This document shows, in pieces, positions 144-54,092 of a stretch of 64,000 nt of DNA (its first letter is position 1; the number at the start of each line of letters is the position of its first letter). The notes beneath the pieces were generated by a model that saw only the letters and a program-made list of their open reading frames with translations, was not told where the DNA came from and did not search any database. The position numbers were made by a program, and so were the translations under genes. Source of the DNA: Candidatus Omnitrophota bacterium (GTDB taxonomy: Bacteria; Omnitrophota; Omnitrophia; Omnitrophales; Aquincolibacteriaceae); assembly GCA_035352955.1 (NCBI GenBank), contig DAOPYQ010000010.1:3145-67144 (forward strand), written 5' to 3'.

Positions 144-182
144 TCAAATAGCTTTTTTATGCGCACGGAGCACGGAGACGAA

Positions 183-704: not shown

Positions 705-705
705 A

Positions 706-1932: not shown

Positions 1933-1965
1933 CCCAGTAACATGACGCATTAGACGGAATACCCC

Positions 1966-5142: not shown

Positions 5143-5143
5143 C

Positions 5144-6610
5144 ATGAGGCGATCATTTGTCGTGACCCTGACGCTGGTTTTGGGGTTGAGCGGCTGCACC
5201 ATGGTCCCGAAATATAAGCGGCCCGACGCTCCGGTCCCGAGCCAGTGGCCTAGCGGCGCTGCTTACCCGGTGGCGGTAATACCGCCCGAGGGCAGTCCCG
5301 AGGTTCCTCAACTGAAATGGCAGGAATTTTTCACTGATCCCAAATTAAAAAAGGTCATCGAAACGGCCCTCCAAAATAATCGGGACCTGCGGCTTGCCAC
5401 TCTGAACATGGAGAGGGTGCGCGCCCTTTACGACATTCAACGGAGTGAGTTGCTTCCCAAGGTCTATGCGGACGCGGGAGGAGGGGAACAACAAGTTTCT
5501 GCTGATTTTGTGGCGCCCGGCGTTAAAAGAACGTCTAAGACTTATGATGTTAATCTGGGAATTGTTGCTTGGGAGATCGATTTTTTCGGCCGCATCCGAA
5601 GCTTGAGCCAAAAGGCTTTGGAGGAATATCTGGGTACGGAGGCGGCCCGGAGGAGCGCGCAGATCGCGTTGGTGTCTTCCGTGGCCAGCACGTATCTGTC
5701 CTTGGCCGCGGATCGGGAGAATCTTGCTTTGTCGGAGGAGACGCTCCAAAGTCAGACATCTGCCTGCAAACTGATCGAGCGGCAGTATGACCTTGGGGTG
5801 GTGAGCAAGCTAGACTTTCAACGCGCTCAAATACCGGTGGAAGTTGCCCGACGCGACGTTGCCTTGTACAGGCAACTCGTTGCACAGAGTCAAAATGCAT
5901 TGGATCTTTTGGCGGGTTCGTCGGTTCCGGAAGATCTCTTGCCGGTTGACCTAGCTAGCATTCAACCTACTACGGATATTTTTCCCGGACTTTCTTCCGA
6001 AGTGCTTCTCAGGAGGCCGGATATTATGGTTGCGGAGCACCAGCTAAAAGGGGCCTATGCCAATATTGGAGCGGCTCGGGCTGCCTTTTTCCCTCAGATT
6101 TCACTGACGACCACGCTCGGTTCTGCCAGCAATGATCTTTCGCATTTGTTCAAGACCGGCACGGCCACTTGGCTCTACGGGGCGCAAGCGACGATGCCGA
6201 TTTTCGATGCGCGCACGTGGTTCGCTTATCGGGTGAGCAAGGCAGATCGTGAAATTGCGGTAACTCAGTATGAAAAGGCCATCCAGACGGCGTTCAGAGA
6301 AGTTGCCGATGCTCTCGCCGTCTACGGAACCGTGGGACAACAGGTGGCGGCACAGCAATCCCTGGTCGATACGGCCGCTGAGACCTACCGGCTTTCGAAT
6401 TTCCGTTATGAGAAAGGCATTGACGATTATTTGGGCGTTCTGGATGCGCAACGCTCTCTCTTTGCCGCACAGCAGGTACTGGTTTCCCTCCGGCGGGCCA
6501 AGCTTGCTAATCAGGTACGTCTTTATGTCGTGTTGGGCGGAGGCGGGGAAGATGTGGCGGAGGCTAGGACTTCTCTGACAAAACGGATTCTCCGGTTTCT
6601 TCATATCTGA
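5144..6610 (+). CDS. Outer-membrane efflux lipoprotein, NodT/OprM family (OMF).
   Basis: ATG at 5144 follows the RND stop. Lipoprotein signal LVLGLSGCTMVP. Two-repeat TolC-like sequence. Confidence 0.85.
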   Translation: MRRSFVVTLTLVLGLSGCTMVPKYKRPDAPVPSQWPSGAAYPVAVIPPEGSPEVPQLKWQEFFTDPKLKKVIETALQNNRDLRLATLNMERVRALYDIQRSELLPKVYADAGGGEQQVSADFVAPGVKRTSKTYDVNLGIVAWEIDFFGRIRSLSQKALEEYLGTEAARRSAQIALVSSVASTYLSLAADRENLALSEETLQSQTSACKLIERQYDLGVVSKLDFQRAQIPVEVARRDVALYRQLVAQSQNALDLLAGSSVPEDLLPVDLASIQPTTDIFPGLSSEVLLRRPDIMVAEHQLKGAYANIGAARAAFFPQISLTTTLGSASNDLSHLFKTGTATWLYGAQATMPIFDARTWFAYRVSKADREIAVTQYEKAIQTAFREVADALAVYGTVGQQVAAQQSLVDTAAETYRLSNFRYEKGIDDYLGVLDAQRSLFAAQQVLVSLRRAKLANQVRLYVVLGGGGEDVAEARTSLTKRILRFLHI

Positions 6611-7068
6611 TGCCGATGAAAAATTCAGAAAGGAGAGCCGCAGTGAAAGAAAAATCTTCCGATTATTTCAAGGATCCTTTCGTATGCATCAAAGCATTCA
6701 TGGTAAAAGAGCATAAGATTTTTCTTCGAAGTGGGGTTATGTTTTTCGATGGTCTTGCATTGGCAGAGTTGAACGAAACTCCTCGTTTAAAAATGTCCGA
6801 TATTGCAGAAAAGACATTTTCGACTCGCCCCGCAACAACCTTTTGCGTGAATCGTCTGATCATGAACGGTCTTGTAAAACGGTACCGCTCCCAAGAGGAT
6901 GACCGGAGGGTCGTTTGGGTAAAAATTACTCCCAAAGGTAAACGATTATTCAAATCCATCCAGAAAAAATGGGAATTATTTCGTGGGGACATTTCAGCGG
7001 GGAAGTTTCGGGAAAATGGTAATCCTTTCGTTTGTTTCTCTCCTGTCAATGACTCGTATGGGGTGTAA
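6610..7068 (+). CDS. MarR-like winged-helix regulator (divergent sequence).
   Basis: Its start overlaps the OMF stop (TGATG). The motif MSDIAEKTFSTRPATTFCVNRLIMNGLVKRYRSQEDDRRVVWVKITPKGKRLF is MarR wHTH-like. Confidence 0.55.
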   Translation: MPMKNSERRAAVKEKSSDYFKDPFVCIKAFMVKEHKIFLRSGVMFFDGLALAELNETPRLKMSDIAEKTFSTRPATTFCVNRLIMNGLVKRYRSQEDDRRVVWVKITPKGKRLFKSIQKKWELFRGDISAGKFRENGNPFVCFSPVNDSYGV

Positions 7069-7109
7069 GCGCATCCAATCTGATCTTTGTCTCCCTATGA
7101 CATAAGGAG

Positions 7110-7290
7110 ATACGATAAAAATAAATCCCAAGTTGCTGATGAACGAGCGGGTCTAGGCCTATAACCTTCGGCGCTATGATAAGTAGAGGAATTTCAAACC
7201 TCATCGCCTTGAATCCTACATCTGGAGATTTATCGATGGTTTGGTTCTGGCGTCATTTAAAAAAAGAATTCCATTGTGAACGATCCCACA
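7110..7290 (+). pseudogene. Decayed remnant of the small sigma-region-2-like gene family. The intact copy is at 62326..62763.
   Basis: Nucleotide and peptide matches: GCCTATAACCTTCGGCGCTATGA...AATTTCAAACC encodes AYNLRRYDK*RNFKP, against KTYNLRYYDVQGNFKP in the intact copy. TCCTACATCTGGA and TTAAAAAAAGA are also shared. It contains stops. Confidence 0.5.
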
Positions 7291-7863
7291 ATCATGCTAT
7301 GCCGATGGGGGAAGGCTGCCAGTTGAAGAATTTGTTAAGGCTTGATAGGGTTCCACGTCTGCCCTTACTTTTTATGTCTATCTCTGATTTCAGGCTTTCA
7401 CCAAACTCGTTAATGATATATAAGGCGACATCAAAAATGATTACTACCGCATTCTTGTAGTATCACGAGGCCATTCTGGGACTGTTGGAAGAAGCTGCCA
7501 GTAAAACGCTCCCGAAGGGATCATTGACAGCCTTCATTTTCTGCAATAACATGCATTAATGTTCATATAAGCATATATGAAGAAAGCCGTATGCATGAAT
7601 TGTAGCGTCTGAAATGTGATTTTGCGTTAGAATGCCCTCCCGAAAAATGATCGTGAAGTTGGAAAGGGGGGGACCCGCCAATTTTCAAAGCAGGCAAGCT
7701 ATCTCGGTCCTCGGCGGAGCTTTAAGCGCGTTTTTGCCCGGCGGTTTTCTAAAGTGATAAAACACAGCATGATGCGGACATGTTTTGCGTCGGCAGCTTT
7801 TTTGAAAAATGGTTCCAATTTAAAAAAAACTTTTCTTTAACTTAATTATACGAAAGAGACCTC

Positions 7864-9528
7864 ATGTTTTCCCCCAAATTAGTGACTTGTCTTAAGGACT
7901 ATTCAAAAGAGAAATTTTTCACAGATTGCATTGCGGGATTCATTGTCGGGGTGGTTGCAATTCCCCTGGCGATTGCCTTCGCCATTGCCTCAGGAGTTTC
8001 TCCCGATAGAGGTCTTTTTACGGCGATCATTGCCGGTTTTCTTGTTTCTGTGCTGGGCGGGAGTCGTGTGCAGATCGGCGGTCCGACAGGCGCTTTTGTG
8101 GTCATTGTTTACGGAGTGGTACAGAAGTATGGGATTGACGGACTTATTATTGCCACCTTGATGGCGGGCGCTCTGCTTGTGATCATGGGGTTCGCAAAAC
8201 TCGGGACGGCGATCAAATTTATTCCCCATTCAGTGATCGTGGGTTTTACGAGCGGTATTGCGGTCATTATCTTTTCATCCCAGGTTAAAGATTTCCTGGG
8301 TTTGAGTATTGATAAAGTTCCGGCCGAATTTGTGGAAAAGTGGCATATTTTTATCCAGCATCTCGGTACGGTTAATTATGCAGCGTTGATCCTAGGCCTT
8401 GTCACGGTTTTTATTATTACCATAACCCCCATGATCTCCAAGCGCGTCCCGGGCGCCCTTGTGGCTCTTATCTCAGTCACGGCTATTGCGGCATTTTTTC
8501 ATCTGCCCGTTGAGACGATCGGCAGTCGTTTCGGGGAACTGCCTCACGGGTTGCCTGTACCGCACTTTCCTCTTTTAAGCTTTTCAAGGATCCGGGAACT
8601 CTTTCAGCCGGCGGTGACGATCGCTCTTTTGGGAGCGATCGAGTCTTTGCTTTCCGCGGTTGTCGCCGACGGTATGATCGGCGCCCGACATCGTCCGAAT
8701 ACTGAGCTGATTGGACAGGGGATCGCGAACCTCGGCTCAGCTTTTTTTGGCGGCATGCCCGCGACGGGAGCAATCGCTAGAACCGTTACCAATATTAAAA
8801 ATGGCGGAAGAACGCCCATCGCCGGTATCGTTCATGCGATTACGGTCCTCCTCATTATGCTGTTTTTGGGCGGTTTGATTAAATTTGTTCCTCTGGCTTG
8901 TTTGGCCGGTATTTTGGTCGTCGTCTCCTATCATATGAGCGAGTGGCGGTCGTTTTATGATCTCTTCAAGGGGTCTAAGGGAGCTAAGATCGTCTTGGGG
9001 CTGACGTTTCTTCTCACGGTTCTTGTCGATCTCAATGTCGCCATTGAGGTCGGGGTCGTGTTGTCCGCGTTCCTCTTCATGAAACGCATGTCGGATGTCA
9101 CGGATGTTAAAGTTTTTTCCAGAGAGTATGAAGAGGATGAGAGAATGGAGAAGGGAGAGGATCGACCGTTGTCTGCCTTTGTTCTTCCTCCGAAGGTTGA
9201 GGTCTATGAAGTTAACGGCCCACTGTTCTTTGGAGCAGCTAACAGTTTTGAAGAGGTTGAACGTGAGATTCATGAAAAACCCAAAGTGCGGATCCTGCGA
9301 TTCCGGGATGTGCCTTTGATTGATTCTACGGGGATGCACGCACTTAAAAGTTTTTATAACAAGAATAAAAGGGAAGGCATCCGTCTCGTTGTGACCGGGC
9401 TACATGTGCAACCGCTCAATGAAATGGTCAAATCGAATCTTTACGATCTTGTGGGCGAGGAGAATGTTTTTGCTAGCATGAAAGAGTCGATCGCGCGCGC
9501 GGAAGAATTGTTGAAAGAAAAAAAATAA
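7864..9528 (+). CDS. SulP-family inorganic anion transporter (sulfate/bicarbonate permease) with a C-terminal STAS domain.
   Basis: N-terminus FTDCIAGFIVGVVAIPLAIAFAIASGVSP is SulP-like. The C-terminus is a STAS domain. Confidence 0.85.
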   Translation: MFSPKLVTCLKDYSKEKFFTDCIAGFIVGVVAIPLAIAFAIASGVSPDRGLFTAIIAGFLVSVLGGSRVQIGGPTGAFVVIVYGVVQKYGIDGLIIATLMAGALLVIMGFAKLGTAIKFIPHSVIVGFTSGIAVIIFSSQVKDFLGLSIDKVPAEFVEKWHIFIQHLGTVNYAALILGLVTVFIITITPMISKRVPGALVALISVTAIAAFFHLPVETIGSRFGELPHGLPVPHFPLLSFSRIRELFQPAVTIALLGAIESLLSAVVADGMIGARHRPNTELIGQGIANLGSAFFGGMPATGAIARTVTNIKNGGRTPIAGIVHAITVLLIMLFLGGLIKFVPLACLAGILVVVSYHMSEWRSFYDLFKGSKGAKIVLGLTFLLTVLVDLNVAIEVGVVLSAFLFMKRMSDVTDVKVFSREYEEDERMEKGEDRPLSAFVLPPKVEVYEVNGPLFFGAANSFEEVEREIHEKPKVRILRFRDVPLIDSTGMHALKSFYNKNKREGIRLVVTGLHVQPLNEMVKSNLYDLVGEENVFASMKESIARAEELLKEKK

Positions 9529-9557
9529 ATTCACCTCAATTTTGCGAGGAAGGGTTT

Positions 9558-9893
9558 ATGAAAAAAATAGACAGCATGGTGTTCAAGATCAAAGCGGATT
9601 TTTTAAAAGCTTTGGCGCATCCGGCCCGTCTCCAGGTCGTGGAATATCTTAAGGGCGGAGAGGCCAGCGTGGGAAAGCTTGTCGCGGCGTTGGGGGTCGA
9701 ACAGTCCAGTTTGTCGCGGCATTTAGCCACCCTTCGGGATCTCGGAGTGCTGGAGGCTCGCCAGGAAAAGACAAATGTTTATTACGCTTTGCATGATCAT
9801 GATATTTTTAAGGTGTTGAAGCCGATCGCCGAGCTTCTCCGGAAAAAATTAAGAAAAAGCGAAAAGATGCTGGAGAGTCTTGGTGAGGATTAA
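9558..9893 (+). CDS. ArsR/SmtB-family metalloregulatory transcriptional repressor.
   Basis: LKALAHPARLQVVEYLKGGEASVGKLVAALGVEQSSLSRHLATLRDLGVL is a canonical ArsR HTH. Confidence 0.85.
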   Translation: MKKIDSMVFKIKADFLKALAHPARLQVVEYLKGGEASVGKLVAALGVEQSSLSRHLATLRDLGVLEARQEKTNVYYALHDHDIFKVLKPIAELLRKKLRKSEKMLESLGED

Positions 9894-9961
9894 GGATTGT
9901 TCGATAAGACGAAATAGTTTTTAGTCATCTTTTTTCGCGTTTTTCTAAGGCTGGAAAGAAT

Positions 9962-10645
9962 ATGCAAAAAACATTCCGTGAAATAGTAAAAGCCTTTGAA
10001 GTTGAAGAGAAAACGCTTTATCAGTGGCTGAATGATCGGAGTATGCCGGCGGTTAAGGCCAATGGCCAGTATTATTTTAATTCTGTCGAGGTTTTGGAGT
10101 GGGCTCTTAAATATAAGATTCCTTTAACGCTCGGAGCCTTAAAACTCTGCGGAAAGAGTCGTTCGAGCCAGGACATTATCACCCCAGCTCTTATCCGCGG
10201 GGGAGTTCATTTTGGGATTAAAGGAAATCGTCGCGAGGAGATTTTTGGGGAAGTCTTAGGTGTTCTGCCTCTCCCGGGCCATTTGGACCGGTCTTCTTTA
10301 AAAGATATGCTGATTTCCCGCGAACAAGCGGGCACGACAGGTATTGGGAACGGGATCGCTATCCCGCACGTCAAGCACCCCGTGATCTTTGCCGGTCTCG
10401 ATCCGGTAATCGGGCTTTTTTTTCTGGAAACCCCCGTTGATTTTGCTGCGCTGGATGGACAAAGGGTCCATACGCTATTTGTGATATTGTCCGGTTCTTT
10501 CAAAGGACATTTGTCGCTTTTGGCGCGCTTGGCGTTTTGTTTGCAAAATGAAAGCGTTCAATCGGTCTTAAAACGTCAAGCGAATGCCGAAGAGATCCTC
10601 GCGACATTCCAGGTTGCGGAAGCAAAAACCGCGCAGGCCGGCTAA
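9962..10645 (+). CDS. Two-domain regulator: an N-terminal excisionase/MerR-type HTH fused to a PTS EIIA type-2 (fructose/Ntr, PtsN-like) domain.
   Basis: HTH: KTLYQWLNDRSMPAVKANGQYYFNSVEVLEWA. EIIA active-site motif GIGNGIAIPHVKHP. The stop abuts the first gene of the Ehr-like operon. Confidence 0.7.
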   Translation: MQKTFREIVKAFEVEEKTLYQWLNDRSMPAVKANGQYYFNSVEVLEWALKYKIPLTLGALKLCGKSRSSQDIITPALIRGGVHFGIKGNRREEIFGEVLGVLPLPGHLDRSSLKDMLISREQAGTTGIGNGIAIPHVKHPVIFAGLDPVIGLFFLETPVDFAALDGQRVHTLFVILSGSFKGHLSLLARLAFCLQNESVQSVLKRQANAEEILATFQVAEAKTAQAG

Positions 10646-12496
10646 GTGGAAAAATTACTTCGTACGCCTTGGTTTGTTCCTCTCGGTGAATTCTCTTTTA
10701 GACTGGATCCCCTGGGCCTTGTATTCCTTGCCGCGATCACGATCCTCGCTTTATGTGCCGGAGTTTATGGTTTTGGATACATGCGTCCTTATCAGGGAAA
10801 GAAATCTCTGGGGATGCATGCCTTTTTTTATCTGATCTTCGTGCTCGATCTTGTTTTGATCACCACAGCCAACAATGCGATCCTTTTTTTGGGGGCGTGG
10901 GAGATCATGACTATTTCTACGTTTTTCCTGATTATCTTTAACGATGAAAAATCCGCGGTGCGCAAGGCCGGATTTATTTATTTGATAGCGTCCCATTGCG
11001 CGACATTTTTTCTTTTCCTGATGTTCTTTTTGATGGCGCATGCCGCAGGGTCCATGAGTTTTGATGTGATGGCGCAGACGGGTTTTTCGCCAGCCTTTGC
11101 GGGGGTGGTATTTCTCCTGGCTTTAGCCGGCTTTGGGGTTAAGGCGGGATGCCTGCCGATGCATATTTGGTTGCCGCATGCCCATCCGGCGGCACCCTCC
11201 CATGTCTCAGCCATCCTGTCGGGGGTCGCGATCAAGATGGGGATTTACGGAATCTGCCGCGTATTGTGGATCGTGAAAGTTCTTCCAGATTGGTGCGGGT
11301 ACGTTCTTTTGGTGATCGGTGTTACCTCTGGCCTCATGGGCGTTTTATATGCGCTTGGCCAGCATGAGCTTAAAAAGCTATTGGCGTATCACAGTATTGA
11401 AAATATCGGCATTATTGCTCTTGGTCTCGGGGTGGGGTTAGTGGGACGGAGTCATCAGGTTCCCTTTCTCGCGGTCCTCGGGTTTGGCGGAGGGCTCCTG
11501 CATGTTTTGAATCACTCGCTTTTTAAAGGGCTTTTGTTTTTGGGAGCGGGTTCCGTTATTCAAAAGACGCACTCCGGAGAGATGGATCATCTCGGGGGTT
11601 TGGCAAAGACATTGCCAGTCACCAGCGCTTTTTTCCTGGTGGGGGCGATCTCGATCTGCGGTTTGCCTCTCTTCAACGGGTTTATTAGCGAATTCATTAT
11701 TTATTTCGGACTCTTTCAAGGACTTTTCGGGCTTCCTGTTTCGGGAGTGATCTTTTGTTCGTTGGGGATCTTGTCTCTGGCTCTCATGGGCGCTCTTGCC
11801 TTGGCCTGTTTTAGCAAGGTCTATGGAACCGTTTTTTTGGGAAAGCCCCGCGTGGATTTAAAAGAATCTTCCCGAGGATCCGGGGCGCAGAAAGGGATAT
11901 GCGGCGAGGAGACATCCAAGTGGATGCTTGTCCCCATGATGATCCTAACGGGATTATGTGCATGGATCGGACTTGTTCCTCAAACCGTAACCGGTTTGGT
12001 TTTCCGCGGCGGGGCCTATCTAACGCATGTGGATTTTTCAACACTCCAACTTGAACAGGTTCTCATGCCCCTAACGCTGGTTGTTTTGATCGCATTTCTG
12101 TTCCTCCTGATCGTGTTGTGTTTGATCTTTATCCGGCGACTTCTTTTGGGGGGAGCGCCTATGCCGATTCGGGAAACATGGAGTTGCGGTTTTTCGCAGG
12201 TCTCAGCGAGGTTTCAATACACCTCAGCGTCTTTTGCCCGAACAATCGTCGAATTGATGCGGCATGCGCTGTTTTTCCGCCGTCAGGGGGGACAAATTAC
12301 GGGCTCTTTCCCGGGGGAAACCCGCGTGGCTTCTTCGGTTCATGATGCCTCTGAAGAGATGATTTTTGGTCCGGGGTTGGCTTTTCTAAATAATCTTTCT
12401 AAAAGGCTAAATCGTAACCGCATGCGTCATACCCAGCTCTACTTGATGTACATTCTTTTATTTCTAGTTTTCTTGTTGATCTGGAAATTAAAATAA
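10646..12496 (+). CDS. NuoL/HyfB/HycC-like antiporter-type membrane subunit of an energy-converting hydrogenase-related (Ehr-like) complex.
   Basis: WLPHAHPAAPSHVSAILSGVAIKMGIYG and HSIENIGIIALGLG are NuoL/MrpA-family motifs. Confidence 0.85.
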   Translation: MEKLLRTPWFVPLGEFSFRLDPLGLVFLAAITILALCAGVYGFGYMRPYQGKKSLGMHAFFYLIFVLDLVLITTANNAILFLGAWEIMTISTFFLIIFNDEKSAVRKAGFIYLIASHCATFFLFLMFFLMAHAAGSMSFDVMAQTGFSPAFAGVVFLLALAGFGVKAGCLPMHIWLPHAHPAAPSHVSAILSGVAIKMGIYGICRVLWIVKVLPDWCGYVLLVIGVTSGLMGVLYALGQHELKKLLAYHSIENIGIIALGLGVGLVGRSHQVPFLAVLGFGGGLLHVLNHSLFKGLLFLGAGSVIQKTHSGEMDHLGGLAKTLPVTSAFFLVGAISICGLPLFNGFISEFIIYFGLFQGLFGLPVSGVIFCSLGILSLALMGALALACFSKVYGTVFLGKPRVDLKESSRGSGAQKGICGEETSKWMLVPMMILTGLCAWIGLVPQTVTGLVFRGGAYLTHVDFSTLQLEQVLMPLTLVVLIAFLFLLIVLCLIFIRRLLLGGAPMPIRETWSCGFSQVSARFQYTSASFARTIVELMRHALFFRRQGGQITGSFPGETRVASSVHDASEEMIFGPGLAFLNNLSKRLNRNRMRHTQLYLMYILLFLVFLLIWKLK

Positions 12497-12511
12497 AAAA
12501 CGAGGTCGTTT

Positions 12512-13447
12512 GTGATCTTGATGCTAAGTAATGCATTCCCGGTTTTGTTCCACTGGTTGATTCTTTGTCTTCTTTCGCCGTTTTTTCTCGGTGTAATCGC
12601 CAAAGTTAAAGCTTTTTTTTCTGGAAAAGTGGGCCCCTCGGTGTTTCAACCCTACTTTGATCTAGCGAAGCTTTTTCGTAAAAAATGTGTCTATAGCCAT
12701 ACCATCACATGGATCTTTCGTGTGGCGCCCGCGGTGGTCCTTGCCGTTATGCTGGTTTTTTCACTGCTGGTTCCTTTTGGTAGATTCACCGCTCCGGTGC
12801 AATTTTCGGGCGACATTCTACTGGCCGTCTATCTCCTGGCTTTGGGCAGGTTCTTTATGATCTTGGCCGCTTTGGACACGGGATCCAGCTTCGAGGGCAT
12901 GGGCGCCAGTCGTGAAGCGTTTTTTTCGTGTTTGTCAGAATTGGCGCTGTTCATGAATTTTATCACGCTTGCGCTGCTCGCCAAGAGCCTCTCTTTGTCT
13001 CAGATGATCGGCTCGGGCTTTTCTTTGTCCTTTGAAGGTTTTGATCCGGCACTATTTCTGGTCATCGCAAGTTTTTTTATCGTGCTGTTGGCCGAAAACT
13101 GCCGTATTCCGGTAGACGATCCGGAGACTCACTTGGAGCTTACGATGATCCATGAGGTGATGATATTGGATCATAGCGGCGTCGACCTGGCCTACATGCT
13201 CTATGCTGCGGCAATGAAATTATTTATTTTTTCCGGGATCCTGGTTTCTCTCATCATTCCGGTTCGGACCGGCCATCCGGTGACGGATACGGCGATTTTT
13301 CTTTGCGGGATTTTGGGGTTGGCGGTCTTCGTGGGGATCGTGGAGTCGTCGATGGCACGCCTGCGCCTTAATCGCGTAAGACTTTTATTGCTGATCTCAT
13401 TTGCTCTGGCGTTTTTCGGTCTTATTGTAAGTCTATGGAGGGCCTAG
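12512..13447 (+). CDS. NuoH/HycD/HyfC-like membrane subunit.
   Basis: Polytopic protein of 311 aa. Its operon position and the conserved stretch ENCRIPVDDPETHLELTMIHEVM resemble HycD/NuoH. Confidence 0.7.
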   Translation: MILMLSNAFPVLFHWLILCLLSPFFLGVIAKVKAFFSGKVGPSVFQPYFDLAKLFRKKCVYSHTITWIFRVAPAVVLAVMLVFSLLVPFGRFTAPVQFSGDILLAVYLLALGRFFMILAALDTGSSFEGMGASREAFFSCLSELALFMNFITLALLAKSLSLSQMIGSGFSLSFEGFDPALFLVIASFFIVLLAENCRIPVDDPETHLELTMIHEVMILDHSGVDLAYMLYAAAMKLFIFSGILVSLIIPVRTGHPVTDTAIFLCGILGLAVFVGIVESSMARLRLNRVRLLLLISFALAFFGLIVSLWRA

Positions 13448-13451
13448 GGGT

Positions 13452-14105
13452 ATGATGTCCTGGATCGATGTGAGTTGCATCCTGGCCGTGTTCCTGGCGC
13501 TCTCTCTTCTGGCAACTCATCGTATTGTGGGAATGATCAAGATCTTTGCATTGCAATCTTTCTTCCTGAGTCTTGTGCCGTTATTTATGAGTGCGGGTGC
13601 CATTTCGGGTCGCACTCTCACGCTTTCTCTCGTGACGATGGCGTTCAAAGCTGTGTTGGCACCCTCCATTTTATTCTGGACGATCCGGCACATCTCCATG
13701 CGTTCCGAGGTCAAACCTATTCTCGGGTTCGGAACCTCGATCCTCTGTGGGTCGGTATTGATCGCCGTTGCTTTCTGGATCTCTTTGTCTTTGAGATTGC
13801 CGGGAAAGTTGGTGCCAAGTTTGATTCTGCCATGTTCGCTGGCGACGATGCTTTTGGGTTTTATGACCATGGTGACCCGTACCCGCGCCATTACCCAAGT
13901 GCTGGGATATATGGTGATCGAGAACGGGATCTTTCTTTTTGCTCTATCACTACTGGATGCAATGCCGGTGTTTATTGAAATGGGCATCTTGCTGGATATT
14001 TTTGTCGCGGTTTTTGTCATGGCCATCGTGCTGAATCACATTAATGAAGAATTCGAACGGACCCGGGGATCTTCGAGTCGGCCTAAATGGGGGGAAAGTA
14101 ATTGA
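13452..14105 (+). CDS. HyfE-like small membrane subunit (NuoK-related).
   Basis: Hydrophobic protein of 217 aa, placed between the NuoH-like and NuoN-like genes as in the hyf operon. Confidence 0.55.
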   Translation: MMSWIDVSCILAVFLALSLLATHRIVGMIKIFALQSFFLSLVPLFMSAGAISGRTLTLSLVTMAFKAVLAPSILFWTIRHISMRSEVKPILGFGTSILCGSVLIAVAFWISLSLRLPGKLVPSLILPCSLATMLLGFMTMVTRTRAITQVLGYMVIENGIFLFALSLLDAMPVFIEMGILLDIFVAVFVMAIVLNHINEEFERTRGSSSRPKWGESN

Positions 14106-15514
14106 TTCTGTCTCTTTTAATTGTGATCCCGCTGGTGGGGGCGCTTGTCGTATGGTTGCCGGCGAAAGCCATGTTCAGGCTGTGGTTGCTATGGGCCATG
14201 TCTCTCGGTCACGCCCTGGTGGTGGCATCCTTTTGGTTGCGGCGGCCGGTCCCTGAATGGCAGGGTTATTTGGTGCTGGATCCCCTGGGACTTATCCTGC
14301 TTTCGGTTGTGAGTCTTCTTTTTCTGTTCGTGTCTTTTTTTATGATCGGTTATTTCCAGCATGAACACAGTGGCAACCGGACCTTTACCTCCTGTCTCTT
14401 TTGCCTTTTATCCATGATGACGTTGGTTTCGGTAAGCTATCATATGGGGCTTCTGTGGGTGGCGATTGAGACGACAACGCTCTTTAGCGCGCCTTTGATC
14501 AGTTTTCATCGTAATTGGGAAACTTTGGAAGCGACCTGGAAGTATTTGCTGGTCTGTTCTGTGGGGATCGCTTTGGCGCTTATGGGGACATTCTTTCTTG
14601 CAATCGCCGCGCATGATGCACACACTCTTCTGTTGCCGGCCATCCTTAACGGCGCTTCTTCGCTTTCCCTCAATTGGTTAAAATTGAGCGTTATCTTTCT
14701 CTTCGTGGGTTATGGCTGCAAGATGGGGCTTGCTCCGATGCACAGTTGGAAGCCGAAAGCTTACGGTCATGCGACCGGCATGGTGACGGTTTTGATGGCT
14801 GGGGGATTGACGCAGTGCTCTTTTTTGGCGCTTATCCGGGTGAGCCAGATTTGTTATAAATCAGGGTTAAGCGATTTTTACGCTTCCATCTTGATCTTCA
14901 CGGGTATTCTGTCGCTTGTGGTTCCGGCGATATTCCTGTTAGGCGAGAAAAACATTAAGAGATCTTTTGCCTTTTCTTCCGTCGAACATATGGGGCTATT
15001 GGTTTTGGGGCTTGGCTTAGGTGGGGTCGGGATCTTCGGCGCTTTATTCCATATGATCAATAATGCCCTGGCAAAGGTGGTGATGTTCCTTACGGCTGGA
15101 TCTATGGCGCAGAAATACGGGTCTTCCAACGCTCATGAGGTCCGGGGAGTCATCCACATCTATCCTGTGACGTGTGTTTTTCTATTATTGGGATTGCTGG
15201 CCGGAACCGGAATGTTCCCCTTCGCAACATTTCATAGCGAGCTTTTGATCATCAATGCCGCCATCATTACGAAACATTACACTTTGGCGGGGATCATCAT
15301 TTTGTGTTTGGCGGTCATTTTTATCGGGATTGCAAGGCTTGTGCTGGAATTTGTCTATGGCAAGCCGACGGAACCGGTGTTGGCTAAAAAAGAGAATCTG
15401 TTCATAAATATCACGATCGCATCAGCCGCCGTGATGCTTCTGGTGCTTGGGCTGTGGATGCCGGCTCCCTTGAATCGGGTGCTTCACGAGGCGGTGGCTC
15501 TGATCGGGGCTTGA
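14102..15514 (+). CDS. NuoN/NuoM/HyfF-like antiporter-type membrane subunit.
   Basis: FLFVGYGCKMGLAPMHSWKPKAYGHATG is a NuoM/N signature. It is 470 aa with about 14 TM segments. Confidence 0.8.
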   Translation: MILSLLIVIPLVGALVVWLPAKAMFRLWLLWAMSLGHALVVASFWLRRPVPEWQGYLVLDPLGLILLSVVSLLFLFVSFFMIGYFQHEHSGNRTFTSCLFCLLSMMTLVSVSYHMGLLWVAIETTTLFSAPLISFHRNWETLEATWKYLLVCSVGIALALMGTFFLAIAAHDAHTLLLPAILNGASSLSLNWLKLSVIFLFVGYGCKMGLAPMHSWKPKAYGHATGMVTVLMAGGLTQCSFLALIRVSQICYKSGLSDFYASILIFTGILSLVVPAIFLLGEKNIKRSFAFSSVEHMGLLVLGLGLGGVGIFGALFHMINNALAKVVMFLTAGSMAQKYGSSNAHEVRGVIHIYPVTCVFLLLGLLAGTGMFPFATFHSELLIINAAIITKHYTLAGIIILCLAVIFIGIARLVLEFVYGKPTEPVLAKKENLFINITIASAAVMLLVLGLWMPAPLNRVLHEAVALIGA

Positions 15515-15556
15515 AGAGGCCCCGGCCGGGCGTTCAGCTGGAACGAATGAGGATCT

Positions 15557-17068
15557 ATGGAACTGTTTAATGGCGGTCATGTTTCGTTAAGGGATATTCC
15601 GGTCTTGTCGGAAAAAGAATTTCGCGATGAGGTGCTTCTTGGCTGTCAGAAAGGCGCGAGGTTGGCGAACCTTTTTGGAAGTCCCGAAGGCGAGGGAGGC
15701 GTTCGCCTGATCGCGATCCTTGGGTTGGATGAAGAGTCCGAACTGCGGATATTATCGACAAAAATCTCAGCGGAATGTCCCCGCTACAAATCTTTGGCCA
15801 AGGAGCTTCCTCAGGCGCAGTTGTTTGAGCGTGAGATCGCGGAACAGTGGGCGATTACACCCGAAGGGCACCCCTGGCTTAAACCCGTGAGGTACCACCC
15901 CAATTATCGCGGGGTCCCGGATCTTTGGCAAGATGTGGCGCAGCGAACGATCCCGGGGGCCTATCCGTTTTATGCTGTGGGTGGCGAGGAAGTTCACGAG
16001 GTTGGTGTGGGGCCGGTGCATGCCGGAATTATCGAGCCCGGACATTTTCGTTTTCAATGTCATGGCGAAGAAGTGATACATCTGGAGATTCAACTAGGAT
16101 ACCAGCACCGCGGGATTGAGCCCATGATGTGCGGGAGGGATTTGAGGCAAGGAGTTCTTTTGAGTGAGTCCATTGCCGGGGATACTTCCATCGGCCATTC
16201 GACATCATTCTGTGAAGTGGTGGAGTCCCTGGCGGGTTGTACGGTTCCGCTCAAGGCACAGGCCATTCGCGCTATCGCATTGGAATTGGAACGGTTGGCG
16301 AATCATGTTGGGGATCTTGGAGCTTTGGGAATGGATGCGGGTTTTCTGCCGACCAGCGCGTATTTTGGCCGTATGCGGGGAGATTATCTGAATTTATTAC
16401 TGGAGTTGACGGGAAACCGTTTTGGCAAAGGCCTGTGCCGTCCGGGAGGCGTTCTTTTTGATATGGACGTATCGATGGCGGACAGTTTCTGCCGTAAACT
16501 CAAATGTTACAAAAAAGAATTTGAGGAGGTGAGCGATCTTTTGTTCACCCGGCCGTCGGTTCTTGCGCGTTTTGAAGGCATCGGAGGGATTTCCCCCAAG
16601 GACGCGAAGAATCTGGGGTTGGTCGGTCCCGTGGCGCGCGCGAGTCAAGTGGAACATGATGTACGTATCGATCACTCTTCGGGAGTTTGGCAATTTTATC
16701 ATGTTCCCATTTCTTTGGCCGCGACGGGGGATGTGTACGCGCGGGCTTTGGTTCGGCGTCAGGAGGTGATGCGCTCGCTGGAATTTTTGTTGAAATTTTT
16801 ACCATCCTTGCCCCAAGGAGAGATTTTCGTTTCTCCCGGGCCTTTGAAGACGGAAACGCTTGCAGTTTCTCTTGTGGAAGGATGGCGTGGCGAGATCATG
16901 CATGTCGGGATTACGGATAGCCAGGGGGCTCTTTGCCGGTACAAGATTAAAGACCCCTCGTTCCAAAATTGGTTTGCCCTGACCTTGGCGATGCGCAATC
17001 AGGAAATCTCTGATTTTCCGCTATGTAATAAAAGTTTTAATCTGTCTTATTGCGGGCATGATCTGTGA
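15557..17068 (+). CDS. NuoC-NuoD fusion homolog of the group-4 [NiFe]-hydrogenase large subunit (HycE/EchE-like) that lacks the NiFe-ligating cysteines. This is an Ehr-type 'large subunit'.
   Basis: The conserved block VGPVHAGIIEPGHFRFQCHGEEVIHLEIQLGYQHRGIE is present. Where hydrogenases carry R-x-C-G-x-C, this protein has ESIAGDTSIGH. The C-terminus ends PLCNKSFNLSYCGHDL, not DPCxxC. Confidence 0.8.
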   Translation: MELFNGGHVSLRDIPVLSEKEFRDEVLLGCQKGARLANLFGSPEGEGGVRLIAILGLDEESELRILSTKISAECPRYKSLAKELPQAQLFEREIAEQWAITPEGHPWLKPVRYHPNYRGVPDLWQDVAQRTIPGAYPFYAVGGEEVHEVGVGPVHAGIIEPGHFRFQCHGEEVIHLEIQLGYQHRGIEPMMCGRDLRQGVLLSESIAGDTSIGHSTSFCEVVESLAGCTVPLKAQAIRAIALELERLANHVGDLGALGMDAGFLPTSAYFGRMRGDYLNLLLELTGNRFGKGLCRPGGVLFDMDVSMADSFCRKLKCYKKEFEEVSDLLFTRPSVLARFEGIGGISPKDAKNLGLVGPVARASQVEHDVRIDHSSGVWQFYHVPISLAATGDVYARALVRRQEVMRSLEFLLKFLPSLPQGEIFVSPGPLKTETLAVSLVEGWRGEIMHVGITDSQGALCRYKIKDPSFQNWFALTLAMRNQEISDFPLCNKSFNLSYCGHDL

Positions 17069-17099
17069 GGTCGAATGATCCTATGAGTAAGGCGCTACT

Positions 17100-17777
17100 A
17101 TGTTGAAAATCCTGATGACGCGTTTCAAACAAGGCTGCCGCACCTTGCGTTTTCCAAGGGGCAAGCCGCCGGTCCTGCCAGCACGCTATCGGGGGCGGCC
17201 TATTGTCGCACGCAAGGAAGACAGTGTGGACTTGGGAAAAATAGCCTTTATTCCTGATAGCGGTATTCGACATTCCAATGATTTCCGGATGGGGGCATCC
17301 CGGCGCGAAGATCTTATGCTCAAGGGAGATGCGGAGGCCTTGGCGTTTACTTTAAATAAAAGGATTACGAAGATGTTTGGCCGATCCCTCAAGCTGCGGC
17401 AGGTGTCGGCAGGCGGGTGCAATGCCTGCGAGGCGGACATTAACGTTCTGAACACGCCTGTTTTTGATCTCAGCCGTTTCGGTATCCAATTTGTGGCGTC
17501 ACCGCGTCATGCCGACGGAATTGTTGTTACGGGGCCCATCACTCGCAACATGAAGGAAGCGCTTCTAAAAACCTACGAAGCCATACCGGATCCGAAGATC
17601 GTTGTTGCGATTGGAGCCTGCGCGATATCCGGAGGCATTTTTTCTAAAAGTGCCGAAGCCTCCAAAGGGTTGGATGCCCTAATCCCCGTGGACCTCTACA
17701 TCCCCGGTTGCCCCCCGCATCCTTTGACGATTCTTGACGGATTTCTAAGATTGATAGGGAGGCTGAAGAATGGGTGA
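17100..17777 (+). CDS. NuoB/HycG-like small subunit that retains the four Cys of the N2-type [4Fe-4S] cluster.
   Basis: GGCNACEAD ... GACAISGG ... IPGCPPHP give the CxxC...C...CPP pattern of group-4 small subunits. Confidence 0.85.
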   Translation: MLKILMTRFKQGCRTLRFPRGKPPVLPARYRGRPIVARKEDSVDLGKIAFIPDSGIRHSNDFRMGASRREDLMLKGDAEALAFTLNKRITKMFGRSLKLRQVSAGGCNACEADINVLNTPVFDLSRFGIQFVASPRHADGIVVTGPITRNMKEALLKTYEAIPDPKIVVAIGACAISGGIFSKSAEASKGLDALIPVDLYIPGCPPHPLTILDGFLRLIGRLKNG

Positions 17778-17848
17778 GATGGGTTCTTTCCAGAGGGCGT
17801 TGCGTTAGACGGTGTGTTCGGATCCTATGTTAAGTTAGACGGAGATTC

Positions 17849-18208
17849 ATGGATTTCCGCGATCTCACGAAGCATAAAGGCGTGGATGCATTTCAGGTGT
17901 CCGGGCCCTCTTTGATCGGACCTCTTCACATTTATGAAGAGGTGATGAAGATAGTAGCGAATAAACCCAAGATGCGAATTATCGATTTTTAAAAGGTCCC
18001 ATTCTTAACGCCATCTGATTTGAACCTTCTAGAGTCCTTCTATAAAAAATGCCACAAGGACAATGTTTGTCTGATCCTGCTCGGAATGCAGGCGCAGCCT
18101 TTCAGCATGATCAAGGGGAAGGGTGTGTATGACTCGATCGGCCCAAAAAATTTCGTAACGAGTATGGATGAGGCCGAAAAACGCATCCTCCAGATTTTAA
18201 CAAAATGA
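17849..18208 (+). pseudogene. Stand-alone STAS-domain gene, a paralog of the SulP C-terminus, interrupted by one in-frame TAA (17989-17991).
   Basis: The ORF track's 18020..18208 segment and the upstream peptide MDFRDL...KMRIIDF are in the same frame. Read together they align with the SulP STAS region (PKVRILRFRDVPLIDSTGMHALKSFYNKNKREGIRLVV). The TAA falls at the position of that Arg. Confidence 0.6.
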
Positions 18209-18370
18209 TAAAAGACGGCTCAAAATGAAAACCGTGATACCTTGGATTCGGATGGTGTCTGTCAAAGGTGCGGATAGTCTCGCTGTTATTGGATGCAAAA
18301 CATTTTCTGAAACTTATGGCCCCTACCCATTCCTCCGTCTAATTTAAAACCCCCAAGTCAGCTATCTTGT

Positions 18371-18490
18371 GTGAAAGTGACCGGGGATTCCATCATCGAT
18401 GCCAGGATCATGTCGGACAACCTTGTGATCGTGGAGCGCGGCCGTCAACTGCGGCACGGGGATATCGTGATCGCTTTGGTGAAACGATAA
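18371..18490 (+). pseudogene. Fragment of a LexA/UmuD-type S24 peptidase domain.
   Basis: The translation VKVTGDSIIDARIMSDNLVIVERGRQLRHGDIVIALVKR matches the conserved S24 block (GDSM...GI.DGD.V.V.R......GDIVVA). It is only 39 codons with no N-terminal domain. Confidence 0.5.
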
Positions 18491-19259
18491 CACCGCCTAT
18501 AGATGACATGATCCCGCCGCTCTCTACCGCAAGGTAGCGCAGACGCACTAAATCCTTCAGATTAAAAATGTCGTTTTTTTTCTCCAAAGTACGACATAAC
18601 GCCTCAAATATCCGGAGCTTTGAACCGGACATTTCCTATCGTATTCAGCAAGAATAGGTTGCAGAAATTGGTGTATATAATAGTAGCATCATCAACTCAT
18701 GACATAGTTCGTGGCGATTGCTGAGATCATGACGCGTACATGACGTAAGCGCGTCACAAAAACGTCTGGCACGAAAGTGGCAGGCGTTGTTGTGCTTGAG
18801 GGTGGAGGTAGCCGTACAGGACATCCATAGTCCTGACGGCGTTGTCTTTGCTTATCGGAAACAGGGGCGAATCCATCCGGGCTCACTTGTCCTCGTTGTA
18901 CAAGCGCGGCATCGTAACGGCTTAATGAAGGCCGTTTACGATGACCGCATTTCTCTTGCCCCAATCTCAGCTACGCTTCGATTGATTGGAATTGGGGCTA
19001 TCTCCAAAACGGCCTTCAGTTTCACCCAGCCAGTTTCAGTTCATCTCTGATTCATTTCGTTTTTGAACATCAAGATAACATTGCTGAAACTGGAATGCTG
19101 CCCAAAATGCGGCCATTTTGGATTGAGTCTTTCTAGTCAGGGGAGGCATTAGGCGAGAATTTGCTGTTAGGCGAAATTGTCACTTTTCCTCTCAAGGCAG
19201 TAAGTGTAGGTTCTTTTTTAAGGAGTGGCATTCGAATCATTCGATTAAATTATGCAAAC

Positions 19260-20153
19260 TTAATTAAGTTTGAAATTCTCAATGATCCGCGTGATAAGAG
19301 GGTGGGGGATTTTCCGTTCCCGGTTGATCAGATAGATGGTGTCATGGATCTTGAATTTTGATTTATCTTTCAATATGGTGAGATATTTTCTTTCCGGGGA
19401 ATTCAGGACGGCATAGGAATTAAGAAGCCCGATGCCTTTTCCCATCGCTACAAATATCCTGCCCAGCTCCAAGTCCTGAATTTCGGCGATGACCTTCGGT
19501 TTTATTTTGTTGGTGTGAATATAATTTTGCATCGCATGATAAGTTTGATCCGGTGCGGTCGGCAAAATCAAAGGGGCTCCGTTCAGATCCTTGGGAATGT
19601 TTTTGAATTTATGCGCCAGTTCTTTGCTGACGCAAAACACCATCGGAATCGTTCCCACTAAATGATTTTGGATCCCTTGCTCATGGGGTGTTTCGTAGGG
19701 GAAATCATTGATAACAAGGTCGAGCTTATGAACCATAAGATCTTCGATCATGTTGTCGATCTTATCCTGACGCAAAATCAGATTTGCCGTTGGTTTGCAT
19801 TGGTAAATAAACTGCACAAGCGCCTCGACGATCGCTTTAGGGACCGCGCTTGAAGCGCCAAGTTGGATCCTGAGATCTTCGGTGTGTTTGCGGTTGATGA
19901 CGGTGTCCGCTAGTTCTTGCCCCAGATCAAAAATCGCCTTCGCATAATTAAAAACCATCAAGCCGTCTTCGGTTAAAGTGAGGTTGCCCGGATCTCGGTT
20001 GAAAAGCTGATGGTCCCAATAGTTTTCCAGCTGTCTGAGTTGCGCGCTTAATGCGGGCTGAGAAACGCGAAGAGCTCTGGCCGCTTTCGAAAAGGAGCGC
20101 TCCTTGGCGACAACGTAAAAATAATAGAGATGGTGATAATTGAATGGAATCAT
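19260..20153 (-). CDS. LysR-family transcriptional regulator.
   Basis: N-terminal HTH YHHLYYFYVVAKERSFSKAARALRVSQPALSAQLRQLE. It is divergent from the downstream gene. Confidence 0.9.
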   Translation of the reverse strand: MIPFNYHHLYYFYVVAKERSFSKAARALRVSQPALSAQLRQLENYWDHQLFNRDPGNLTLTEDGLMVFNYAKAIFDLGQELADTVINRKHTEDLRIQLGASSAVPKAIVEALVQFIYQCKPTANLILRQDKIDNMIEDLMVHKLDLVINDFPYETPHEQGIQNHLVGTIPMVFCVSKELAHKFKNIPKDLNGAPLILPTAPDQTYHAMQNYIHTNKIKPKVIAEIQDLELGRIFVAMGKGIGLLNSYAVLNSPERKYLTILKDKSKFKIHDTIYLINRERKIPHPLITRIIENFKLN

Positions 20154-21669: not shown

Positions 21670-22086
21670 GTGGAAGAAAGAAAGATATTTGTTACCACCC
21701 ATGATGCGGAACGGCTTCGGCAACTGATTCGCGGGATGACAAATCCCGGGGATCACGAGCGGATTTATCTGAGAATGCTTGCGGAAGAGCTTCTTCGGGC
21801 GGAAATCGTGGATCCTTTGAAAATCCCAAGGGATGTCGTGACGATGAATTCGCTCGTTAAATTCAGGGATATGGATACCCGTGAGATCTGCATGTACAGC
21901 ATCGTTTATCCGGCAAACGCAGATTTCGAACACGGAAGAATTTCTGTGTTAGCTCCGATCGGCATGGCCTTATTGGGCTATCGCGTTGGCGATCTCGTGG
22001 AGTGGCCGGTTCCCGCAGGAATGAGGCGGCTCAAAGTCGAAGAGGTGTTGTATCAACCGGAGGCTGCGGGGCAGTACGAGCTCTGA
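21670..22086 (+). CDS. GreA/GreB C-terminal-domain protein, Rnk-like (regulator of nucleoside diphosphate kinase).
   Basis: ISVLAPIGMALLGYRVGDLVEWPVPAGMRRLKVEEVLYQPEAAG matches the GreA FKBP-like C-terminal domain (SPIGRALLGK.VGD). Confidence 0.7.
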   Translation: MEERKIFVTTHDAERLRQLIRGMTNPGDHERIYLRMLAEELLRAEIVDPLKIPRDVVTMNSLVKFRDMDTREICMYSIVYPANADFEHGRISVLAPIGMALLGYRVGDLVEWPVPAGMRRLKVEEVLYQPEAAGQYEL

Positions 22087-22138
22087 GCGAGTTTATCATT
22101 GGTAAAAGAGGTTTTTAGATAAACAAAGGAGGGTGATC

Positions 22139-23590: not shown

Positions 23591-23594
23591 ATAT

Positions 23595-24062
23595 ATGAGA
23601 CACAAAAAAGAAAAAAAGAACGTCGAACCGGAAAATGTCACGGTTGAGGCAAATCCCAAAAAAAAGATATCAAAAAACGACCTCGATCGTTTGACGGAGG
23701 CGATTAGAATCGCCCGTGAAATCGGCGGGGGAAGGGATATCGTTTTAGGAAGGCTTAGAAAGGTTCTCCGAGATTCGGAGATTATGCCGGCTCAGAAAAT
23801 ACCTAAAAGTATCGTGACCATGAATTCGGCGGGAAAGATCTTGTGGCTAGACACACAGGAGGTTCGATTGTTCTGGCTCGGTTTTCCCGAAGCTATTAAT
23901 CACGACGGGAACAAAGTGTCGATTTTTTCGTCGTTGGGGATCGCGTTGTTGGGTGCCCGTGTGGGCGAGGACACCGCCCAGGAAGTCCCCACAGGACATC
24001 GATTGTTCAAGGTCATGAAGCTGCTGTATCAGCCGGAAGCGAAAAAAGATTTCCATCTTTGA
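23595..24062 (+). CDS. Second GreA/Rnk-like C-terminal-domain protein, a paralog of the gene at 21670..22086.
   Basis: SIFSSLGIALLGARVGEDTAQEVPTGHRLFKVMKLLYQPEA aligns with the first copy and with the GreA C-terminal domain. Confidence 0.65.
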   Translation: MRHKKEKKNVEPENVTVEANPKKKISKNDLDRLTEAIRIAREIGGGRDIVLGRLRKVLRDSEIMPAQKIPKSIVTMNSAGKILWLDTQEVRLFWLGFPEAINHDGNKVSIFSSLGIALLGARVGEDTAQEVPTGHRLFKVMKLLYQPEAKKDFHL

Positions 24063-28212: not shown

Positions 28213-28276
28213 AAGAGCGTGAAACGGGTGCGGTGACCTGAGTTTTAGTCACGGCATCATGTCGGAGATTTAAACC

Positions 28277-31072: not shown

Positions 31073-31073
31073 C

Positions 31074-54091: not shown

Positions 54092-54092
54092 A

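Follow-up and report, generated by a model that had tools for sequence, protein, structure and literature searches.

The 64,000-nucleotide stretch of contig DAOPYQ010000010.1 analysed here, hereafter the window, comes from a Candidatus Omnitrophota bacterium (GenBank assembly GCA_035352955.1) and encodes, at positions 10646-17777, a membrane complex with likeness to both respiratory complex I and group 4 [NiFe]-hydrogenases. An open reading frame (ORF) check of the window confirmed six contiguous ORFs at the stated coordinates, all on the + strand. The Pfam and NCBIfam profile scans, by which the window ORFs were assigned to families, confirmed the NuoL-, NuoH-, HyfE-, NuoN-, NuoCD/HycE- and NuoB/HycG-like affiliations proposed in a first-pass annotation of this DNA. 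The same annotation had placed the complex in the 'energy-converting hydrogenase related' (Ehr) group and not among hydrogenases. This call has stood, given the subunit set and order, the match with the literature and a cysteine-less clade in a neighbour-joining tree, and we consider membership of the Ehr family highly probable.

The first Ehr complex to be recognised was that of Geobacter (GSU0739-45), with NuoL-like EhrA, HyfE-like EhrC, EhrL and EhrS; most members are devoid of the NiFe-binding cysteines, and the function is described as unknown (PMC7894505, PMC3569383, PMC12342949, PMC10284858, PMC10432482). Six-gene clusters have been published, which comprise a NuoC-NuoD fusion, HyfB, HyfF, NuoH and HyfE, with NiFe cysteines absent (PMC6349859 Supplementary Note 4; PMC3569383; PMC7894505).

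The ehr operon and its membrane subunits

The first gene, ehrA (10646-12496, +), encodes a 616-aa antiporter-like protein of the HyfB/HycC/NuoL type (Pfam Proton_antipo_M, 1.3e-52; NCBIfam hydrogenase 4 subunit B, 3.9e-159). It is followed by ehrB (12512-13447, +) for a NuoH/HyfC/HycD-like membrane subunit of 311 aa (Pfam NADHdh, 1.7e-34), by ehrC (13452-14105, +) for a HyfE-like, NuoK-related membrane subunit of 217 aa (NCBIfam hydrogenase 4 membrane subunit, 2.5e-21; Pfam Oxidored_q2, 5e-4) and, overlapping ehrC by 4 nt, by ehrD (14102-15514, +), which codes for the second antiporter-like protein, of 470 aa and HyfF/NuoN/MbhH type (NCBIfam hydrogenase 4 subunit F, 3e-83). The large subunit gene ehrL (15557-17068, +) and the small subunit gene ehrS (17100-17777, +) complete the set. 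A scan of 7000-19500 for promoters and terminators gave counts no better than those of shuffled sequences, so the operon boundaries are not defined by that scan.

Both antiporter-like subunits have the canonical buried glutamate and lysine residues intact. Aligned to E. coli HycC (7z0s_C, 1.6e-59), EhrA retains the glutamate of transmembrane helix (TM) 5, the lysine of TM7 and the glutamate of TM12; EhrD, aligned to MbhH (6cfw_H), retains the TM5 glutamate and TM7 lysine and has glutamate at the position of the TM12 lysine. EhrA is shorter at its N-terminus by ~55-60 residues, corresponding to TM1-2, than the HyfB, HycC and NuoL models: it aligned to positions 64-665 of the NCBIfam subunit B model, and its match to HycC begins at chain residue 66. 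The two helices missing here are present in relatives L001, L003, L007, L008 and L015 (such labels denote loci among the 80 Ehr loci retrieved). As the Omnitrophota locus L005 has the same short form, the truncation is probably real and not an assembly error.

Peripheral arm: a large subunit without nickel ligands and a small subunit with one cluster

EhrL is a NuoC-NuoD/HycE-like protein of 503 aa that unites Pfam domains Complex1_30kDa and Complex1_49kDa in one ORF. It had been noted to keep the diagnostic GYQHRGIE block, to carry SIAGDTSIGH in place of RxCGxC and to be without the C-terminal DPCxxC, and we found all three observations to be accurate. The block occupies residues 181-188, SIAGDTSIGH residues 205-214, and the protein ends with NLSYCGHDL (495-503). 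When EhrL is aligned with the E. coli HycE structure (7z0s_E, E 6.3e-50), its 'sesiagdtsighs' falls opposite 'sdrvcgicgfahs', and from this and the family alignment RvCGiC of HycE corresponds to SIAGDT and DPCYSC to NLSYCG. The HycE alignment ends with 'nksfnlsy' under 'igsldpcy', which puts S497 at the third ligand cysteine; G500 at the fourth position is extrapolated by register and backed by the family alignment. The four ligand positions are thus held by A207, T210, S497 and G500, none of them cysteine, and neither the L1 (RxCGxCxxxH) nor the L2 (DPCxxCxxH/R) motif of group 4 [NiFe]-hydrogenases is present in EhrL. The comparison with HycE, proposed with the first-pass annotation as a check on the loss of all four nickel-ligating cysteines, bore out that loss, and EhrL cannot bind a NiFe centre. 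The one nearby cysteine, C499, was considered as a shifted ligand and rejected, because it is one position off register and varies between C, S and A across the family.

The polar residues G208, D209, S497, G500, D502 and L503 are conserved in the family as a set at the site where the metal would sit, and the hydrogenase-type β1-β2 loop is kept, including the conserved H155 and E160-P161. His38 and Tyr87 of Thermus thermophilus Nqo4 correspond to Ile159 and Ala207, so that the quinone-ligating His/Tyr pair of complex I is also gone.

The replacement is shared by nearly the whole family. An exhaustive homolog search among 50%-identity representatives (cut-off 1e-30) returned 915 proteins, and 111 full-length representatives out of the best 150 were aligned. 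About 100 of these 111 share xE[ST]IAGD[TS]xxGH together with a C-terminal NKSFNLSY[C/S/A]GxDL; seven, at 33-38% identity, retain CGxC and CYxCxDR, and the few remaining ones are frameshifted or truncated. In a neighbour-joining tree without support values, 103 cysteine-less tips form one clade that excludes the seven cysteine-bearing sequences; HycE served in this tree as outgroup only, and the comparison of ligand positions is based on the alignment with the solved structure.

One reading of the locus is a real [NiFe]-hydrogenase or formate hydrogenlyase of an unconventional kind, whose metal would be held by displaced ligands or by residues other than the usual ones. It could draw on the similarity to E. 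coli formate hydrogenlyase and hydrogenase 4 (group 4a, PDB 7Z0S), which provide the best solved matches for EhrL and EhrA: the gene order is that of hyfB-C-E-F-G-(H)-I, and the Glu160 of the β1-β2 loop and the CxxC-type proximal motif of the small subunit, with its spacing, are common to Hyc/Hyf. Geobacter Ehr subunits were moreover found to be more abundant on formate (PMC7894505). However, all four ligand positions are non-cysteine and conserved as such in the large majority of representatives, and Ehr expression in Nitrospira does not respond to H2 (PMC12342949). The query also differs from Hyc/Hyf in having no HyfD, no HycB/HyfA and no formate dehydrogenase partner, with HycF reduced to a cluster-less part of EhrS. 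No Hyp, HycB/HyfA or formate dehydrogenase domains were found in the Pfam-scanned ORFs of the window (the main ORFs, plus two 2,000-residue stretches of one giant ORF), in line with the earlier remark that no HycB/HyfA-like input gene stands beside the operon, and no recurrent partner was found in the flanks of relatives. At the level of sequence the hydrogenase reading is refuted by the loss of all four ligand cysteines, and we give it next to no credence.

EhrS (225 aa; Pfam Oxidored_q6/NuoB, 8.7e-32) consists of two parts. Its NuoB/HycG/MbhJ-like domain (17385-17777, +) matches MbhJ best (6cfw_J, 2.1e-37), with E. coli HycG just behind (7z0s_G, 2.4e-36). It carries the proximal [4Fe-4S] ligands C107, C110, C174 and C204 in the hydrogenase-type pattern GGCNAC...GACAISGG...PGCPP. 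All four are invariant in 120 of 120 close (Omnitrophota-type) homologs, and the proximal, N2-like cluster, whose four cysteines the first-pass annotation had already noted, is strictly conserved.

The N-terminal extension of ~95 residues (residues 1-95; 17100-17384, +) has E. coli NuoI and HycF as its sole PDB matches, in two collinear pieces: residues 16-42 match NuoI 31-56, including the PPRYRGR motif, and residues 52-75 match NuoI 110-133. When the N-termini of 25 family members were compared singly with NCBIfam, 20 matched HycF (best 4.3e-6), 14 HyfH and ten NuoI. The extension is collinear with that of relatives retaining both CxxCxxCxxxCP motifs. Both motifs, with eight or nine cysteines, were found in 53 of 74 loci, where the region is 62-71 residues long; in the query and in Omnitrophota loci L001-L006 the same region has 36-38 residues and no cysteine, as illustrated by VDLGRCLFCxxCxxxCPxGAIxF in a cysteine-bearing relative against VDLGKIAFIPDSGIRH in the remnant. 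Mean column identity in the remnant is 74%, with 21 invariant positions. Compared with the Ehr norm, the NuoI domain of Omnitrophota has therefore shed all eight cysteines and ~30 residues, which leaves the complex with a single Fe-S cluster. What is left of the fused ferredoxin domain of EhrS in this lineage is a conserved remnant of a HycF/HyfH/NuoI-type subunit that has no cysteines and neither of the two [4Fe-4S] sites, and the complete loss of these clusters is a derived peculiarity of the Omnitrophota clade.

No replacement was found nearby: a CxxCxxCxxxC motif is absent from all six frames of the window, and neither this motif scan nor the Pfam scans of the main ORFs revealed a separate ferredoxin or HycB gene elsewhere in it. 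Of the three-cluster electron path formed by a 2x[4Fe-4S] subunit and the proximal cluster, the proximal ligands alone remain. The first-pass annotation was right that no separate NuoI gene exists, but it overlooked the cluster-less HycF/NuoI remnant fused to the NuoB-like protein. Its further argument, that the absence of a NuoI-type subunit fits Ehr, was mistaken: Ehr normally carries NuoI fused to NuoB (PMC6349859), and 53 of 74 relatives keep the cysteines. It is because of this fusion that Ehr clusters have no separate NuoI gene. Both the NuoI-NuoB and the NuoC-NuoD fusions are described in Supplementary Note 4 of PMC6349859, citing Marreiros 2013.

These features also bear on the reading of the locus as a minimal respiratory complex I, that is, an NADH or ferredoxin:quinone oxidoreductase. 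The core folds of NuoB, C, D, H and L/M/N and an N2-like cluster are indeed shared, and the NuoB-, C-, D-, H- and L/N-like proteins match Pfam complex-I families. In an Omnitrophota survey, Seymour et al. counted respiratory complex I by PF00346 alone (PMC10066038). EhrL matches PF00346 at 1.7e-36, hence the complex I count of that survey may include Ehr complexes, and metabolic reconstructions of Omnitrophota that call complex I by PF00346, or hydrogenase by homology, would misidentify the complex described here. Against such an identity, the full set of 11-14 subunits (with NuoA, J, K, I, E, F and G) is not encoded: there are six genes with unrelated flanks, without NuoA, NuoJ and the N-module subunits NuoE, F and G, and the NuoI clusters are gone. 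The quinone-ligand positions are occupied by Ile159 and Ala207, and every subunit scores higher against Hyf/Hyc/Mbh than against Nuo. We regard a minimal complex I as very improbable.

By its sequence features the complex is neither a hydrogenase nor a complex I, and it probably descends from group 4 [NiFe]-hydrogenases of the Hyf/Hyc type. That a complex derived from a hydrogenase can abandon H2 chemistry has a precedent in MBS. The Pyrococcus furiosus complexes MBH and MBS/Mbx (6CFW, 6U8Y) have a homologous peripheral module and antiporter-like subunits; unlike the query, they are built of 13-14 subunits, which include a complete Mrp module and a NuoI-type subunit that is intact. By sequence, MBS stands furthest from the query among the PDB matches (MbsL, 4.5e-18), and the 13-subunit composition of Mrp-Mbx complexes, in which MbsL retains part of the cysteines, is not found here.

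The Ehr family and its Fe-S mosaic

Ehr complexes are widespread: a scan of one genome per species detected a relative in at least 598 species. The 80 loci retrieved come from Omnitrophota, Planctomycetota, Verrucomicrobiota, Gemmatimonadota, Geobacteraceae, Desulfobacterota, Acidobacteriota, Spirochaetota, Myxococcota, Riflebacteria, Fibrobacterota and others, and nearly all have the same order of six genes. Close homologs of the query proteins bear Candidatus Omnitrophota names. Collinear clusters at 46-50% identity occur in Geobacter sp., Geomonas limicola, Pelobacter and Geobacteraceae. The G. sulfurreducens cluster GSU0739-0745 is known here by description; the Ehr naming based on it reportedly goes back to Coppi and to Marreiros et al. 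2013. Database annotations of the Geobacteraceae homologs do not use the name Ehr, the labels being 'hydrogenase' or 'NuoC'.

With the Geobacter-type Ehr the query shares the six-protein composition and order, the NuoC-NuoD protein without NiFe cysteines and the NuoI-NuoB small subunit. It thus has the features by which Ehr is recognised, namely a group-4-hydrogenase-like gene set, no CxxC...CxxC ligands and both fusions, with the Fe-S sites of the second fusion lost. A difference lies in the number of antiporter-like genes. In six loci (L017, L020, L034, L042, L046 and L076) ~2.2 kb of additional sequence separates the first antiporter-like gene from the NuoH-like one, which would fit a further gene of EhrA type such as the seven-gene cluster of Geobacter has; the Geobacteraceae loci among them (L042, L046) appear to have two EhrA genes, whereas the query has one.

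Clusters have been lost elsewhere in the family as well, and not always the same ones. In six Gemmatimonadota loci (L013, L017, L022, L023, L030 and L033) one to five cysteines of the ferredoxin domain are left, and in seven loci of Geobacterales/Desulfobacterales (L036, L045, L051, L053, L054, L075 and L077) five to seven of the eight; the domain length is retained in both groups. From this partial decay of the NuoI domain it seems that one cluster or both disappeared independently in these lineages. The pattern opposite to that of Omnitrophota was found in L024, L037 and L073, from Planctomycetota and Opitutae, which keep all eight cysteines of the ferredoxin domain and have lost two to three of the four proximal ones (e.g., GGSGACE and PGWPP).

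Neighbouring genes and possible function

The first-pass annotation was correct about the six genes but drew the unit too small: a gene for a helix-turn-helix (HTH) protein with an EIIA domain belongs to it, and genes for an ArsR-type regulator and a SulP transporter lie directly upstream. The first of these (9962-10645, +) encodes HTH_17 fused to a PTS-EIIA(2)/PtsN-like domain of the phosphotransferase system (PTS; Pfam PTS_EIIA_2, 1.4e-20), and the GTG start of ehrA follows its stop codon without a gap. In L001 and L003, relatives at 75% and 61% identity, the two genes overlap by 4 nt. Among loci with enough upstream sequence, tblastn located the EIIA gene upstream of the Ehr cluster in 35 of 55, across many phyla, which shows that the PtsN-like HTH-EIIA gene is a conserved upstream partner of the operon. 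The putative phospho-acceptor is His136 in GIGNGIAIPH, which we take to be the phosphorylation motif of E. coli PtsN from a comparison by eye with a PtsN sequence; GIAIPH is conserved in all orthologs compared (the first 20 alignment rows). The EIIA(2) fold and GIAIPH are thus common to PtsN (EIIA-Ntr), whereas the N-terminal HTH_17 and the genetic coupling to the Ehr operon are additions. Because its score against the NCBIfam PtsN model (4e-19, 68.9 bits) is below the equivalog cut-off of 138.7, we call the protein PtsN-like rather than PtsN.

Upstream of it, an ArsR/SmtB-family regulator is encoded at 9558-9893 (+; Pfam HTH_5, 2.6e-12; NCBIfam HTH_metalloreg, 2.4e-23); the arrangement ArsR-EIIA-Ehr recurs, at 57% identity, in a metagenome-assembled genome of Fibrobacteres (L081). 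The gene for the SulP-family anion transporter with C-terminal STAS domain (7864-9528, +; Pfam Sulfate_transp, 1.5e-86, and STAS) lies 30 nt upstream of the ArsR gene on the same strand, and is possibly co-transcribed with it. Its best NCBIfam match is DauA with 518 bits, below the cut-off of 614; against BicA it scores 287 bits. SulP genes also adjoin the Ehr cluster in L003, L005, L030, L063 and L066, which belong to three phyla (Omnitrophota, Verrucomicrobiota and Gemmatimonadota). Downstream of ehrS, 17882-18205 (+) encodes a STAS-only fragment without a transmembrane part. Its blastx match to the upstream SulP covers residues 445-552 (31% identity, E 7e-20) and is interrupted by an in-frame stop, and by tblastx it also matches the 3' ends of the SulP genes in L003 and L005; it looks like the pseudogene remnant of a decayed second SulP gene.

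When the ORFs flanking the 80 loci were clustered without supervision, there was no further recurrent neighbour beyond the six core genes, EIIA and SulP, and no conserved partner oxidoreductase; the other recurrent clusters were antisense shadow ORFs produced by a naive ORF caller in genomes of high G+C content.

SulP adjacency brings in another reading, that of an energy-coupled uptake system for inorganic carbon or anions, similar to cyanobacterial NDH-1/CupA or to DAB and acting together with a BicA-like SulP. In DAB and NDH-1MS, NuoL-like subunits drive CO2 hydration, and the occurrence of SulP beside Ehr in three phyla, together with the SulP relic downstream, would fit such a role. However, neither the cluster nor its recurrent neighbours include a carbonic-anhydrase-like, CupA or DabA-like protein, the SulP is nearer to DauA than to BicA, and SulP adjoins Ehr in only ~6 of 55-60 loci. 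We therefore hold this reading to be improbable. For the hydrogenase, the complex I and the CO2-hydration reading alike, a defining feature was examined and contradicts it.

Our best explanation, in which we have moderate confidence, is that the locus encodes an Ehr complex derived from Hyf/Hyc-type enzymes and working as a single-cluster ion translocator, probably regulated by the PTS. Its membrane arm would still translocate cations or protons, and would be driven or gated from the one remaining cluster and the polar pocket at the former NiFe site (E160, D209, T210, S497 and D502-L503). As there are no relay clusters, any electron must reach the proximal cluster directly from a soluble one-electron carrier, e.g., ferredoxin, and might enter at the surface vacated by the HycF core; alternatively, the remaining cluster may act as a redox sensor. 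The HTH-EIIA protein might place ehr expression, and possibly activity, under control of a PTS(Ntr)-type phosphorelay through phosphorylation of its EIIA domain. In the query genome the complex may also be tied functionally to the SulP anion transporter, a link that would point to ion homeostasis or the ion-coupled transport of anions as its role. This specific mechanism is tentative and has, in our estimate, no better than about one chance in three of being right.

Several points weigh against it. Most family members retain the full three-cluster wire; this argues that genuine electron transfer was the original role and that the complex may still require it here in one way or another. At the same time, the loss of the proximal cluster in L024, L037 and L073 means that no single cluster is universally required. 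EhrA is without two N-terminal helices found in relatives. The EIIA link consists in gene neighbourhood only, and SulP is adjacent in about one locus in ten.

The chief alternative is a redox-independent, Mrp-like secondary cation/proton antiporter, in which the NuoBCD-like arm would be a structural or regulatory cap, its cluster a structural element or sensor, and EIIA a regulator of K+/Na+ homeostasis as E. coli PtsN is. The independent Fe-S losses in Omnitrophota and, partially, in Gemmatimonadota and Desulfobacterales/Geobacterales, with loss of the proximal site in three further loci, speak for such a device; so do the intact antiporter-like residues, the conserved PtsN-like gene, the adjacent SulP as an ion-coupled transporter and the want of a conserved partner oxidoreductase among the 80 loci. 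The invariance of the proximal cysteines in 120 of 120 Omnitrophota-type homologs speaks against it, as does the retention of all three clusters in 53 of 74 relatives, which would be costly for a purely structural role. Mrp antiporters, moreover, function without any NuoB/D/H module; the query has two antiporter-like subunits and a HyfE/NuoK-like one and is without MrpB, E, F and G, with a NuoBCDH-like module attached instead. We rate this antiporter as a serious, though rather unlikely, alternative. Slightly less likely still is the broader proposition that Ehr complexes in general are PTS(Ntr)-controlled ion translocators with a hydrogenase/complex-I-like cap, and not oxidoreductases. If it were true, the independent Fe-S losses would represent a natural experiment in which the electron wire proved dispensable, and complex-I-type coupling machinery could run, or be gated, without net redox chemistry.

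The Ehr family, its missing NiFe ligands and its subunit fusions are already known. In the literature searched we found no account of the complete loss of the fused ferredoxin clusters in the Omnitrophota clade with the proximal cluster kept, of the patchwork of Fe-S losses in other family members, or of the PtsN-like gene as a conserved partner and SulP as a recurrent neighbour. The locus is no novel type of system, yet it gives concrete handles on a very widespread complex, which commonly goes under the labels 'hydrogenase', 'formate hydrogenlyase' or 'complex I' and whose function has stayed unexplained in the roughly twenty years since its naming. The lineage that has deleted the electron-input wire and keeps the proximal cluster under strict constraint narrows the possible function, the HTH-EIIA partner provides a regulatory entry point, and SulP is a recurrent neighbour to follow.

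The rest of the window contains further transport genes. Three efflux systems surround the Ehr operon, at 123-7068, 27148-33717 and 55769-61057; two are of the resistance-nodulation-division (RND) type and one is an ABC-2 system with HlyD and OEP proteins, and MarR-type regulators accompany them. The giant ORF at 34152-53945 (+) encodes 6,597 aa; its two scanned stretches gave a response-regulator receiver near the C-terminal end (9.1e-14) and, apart from this, only a sub-threshold CofD-like match. Rfam detected a single RNA gene in the whole window, a tRNA at 54014-54088 (+). At this gene, right after the giant ORF, G+C content falls from ~0.57 to ~0.43, and the low-G+C block that follows (~54000-64000), with an OEP/HlyD/AcrB RND efflux system and a cation diffusion facilitator (CDF)-type efflux protein, may be an acquired island. 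Between the operon and the second efflux system, at 21670-24062 (+), two proteins with a GreA/GreB C-terminal domain, one of them Rnk-like, are encoded on either side of a gene of the saccharopine dehydrogenase family.

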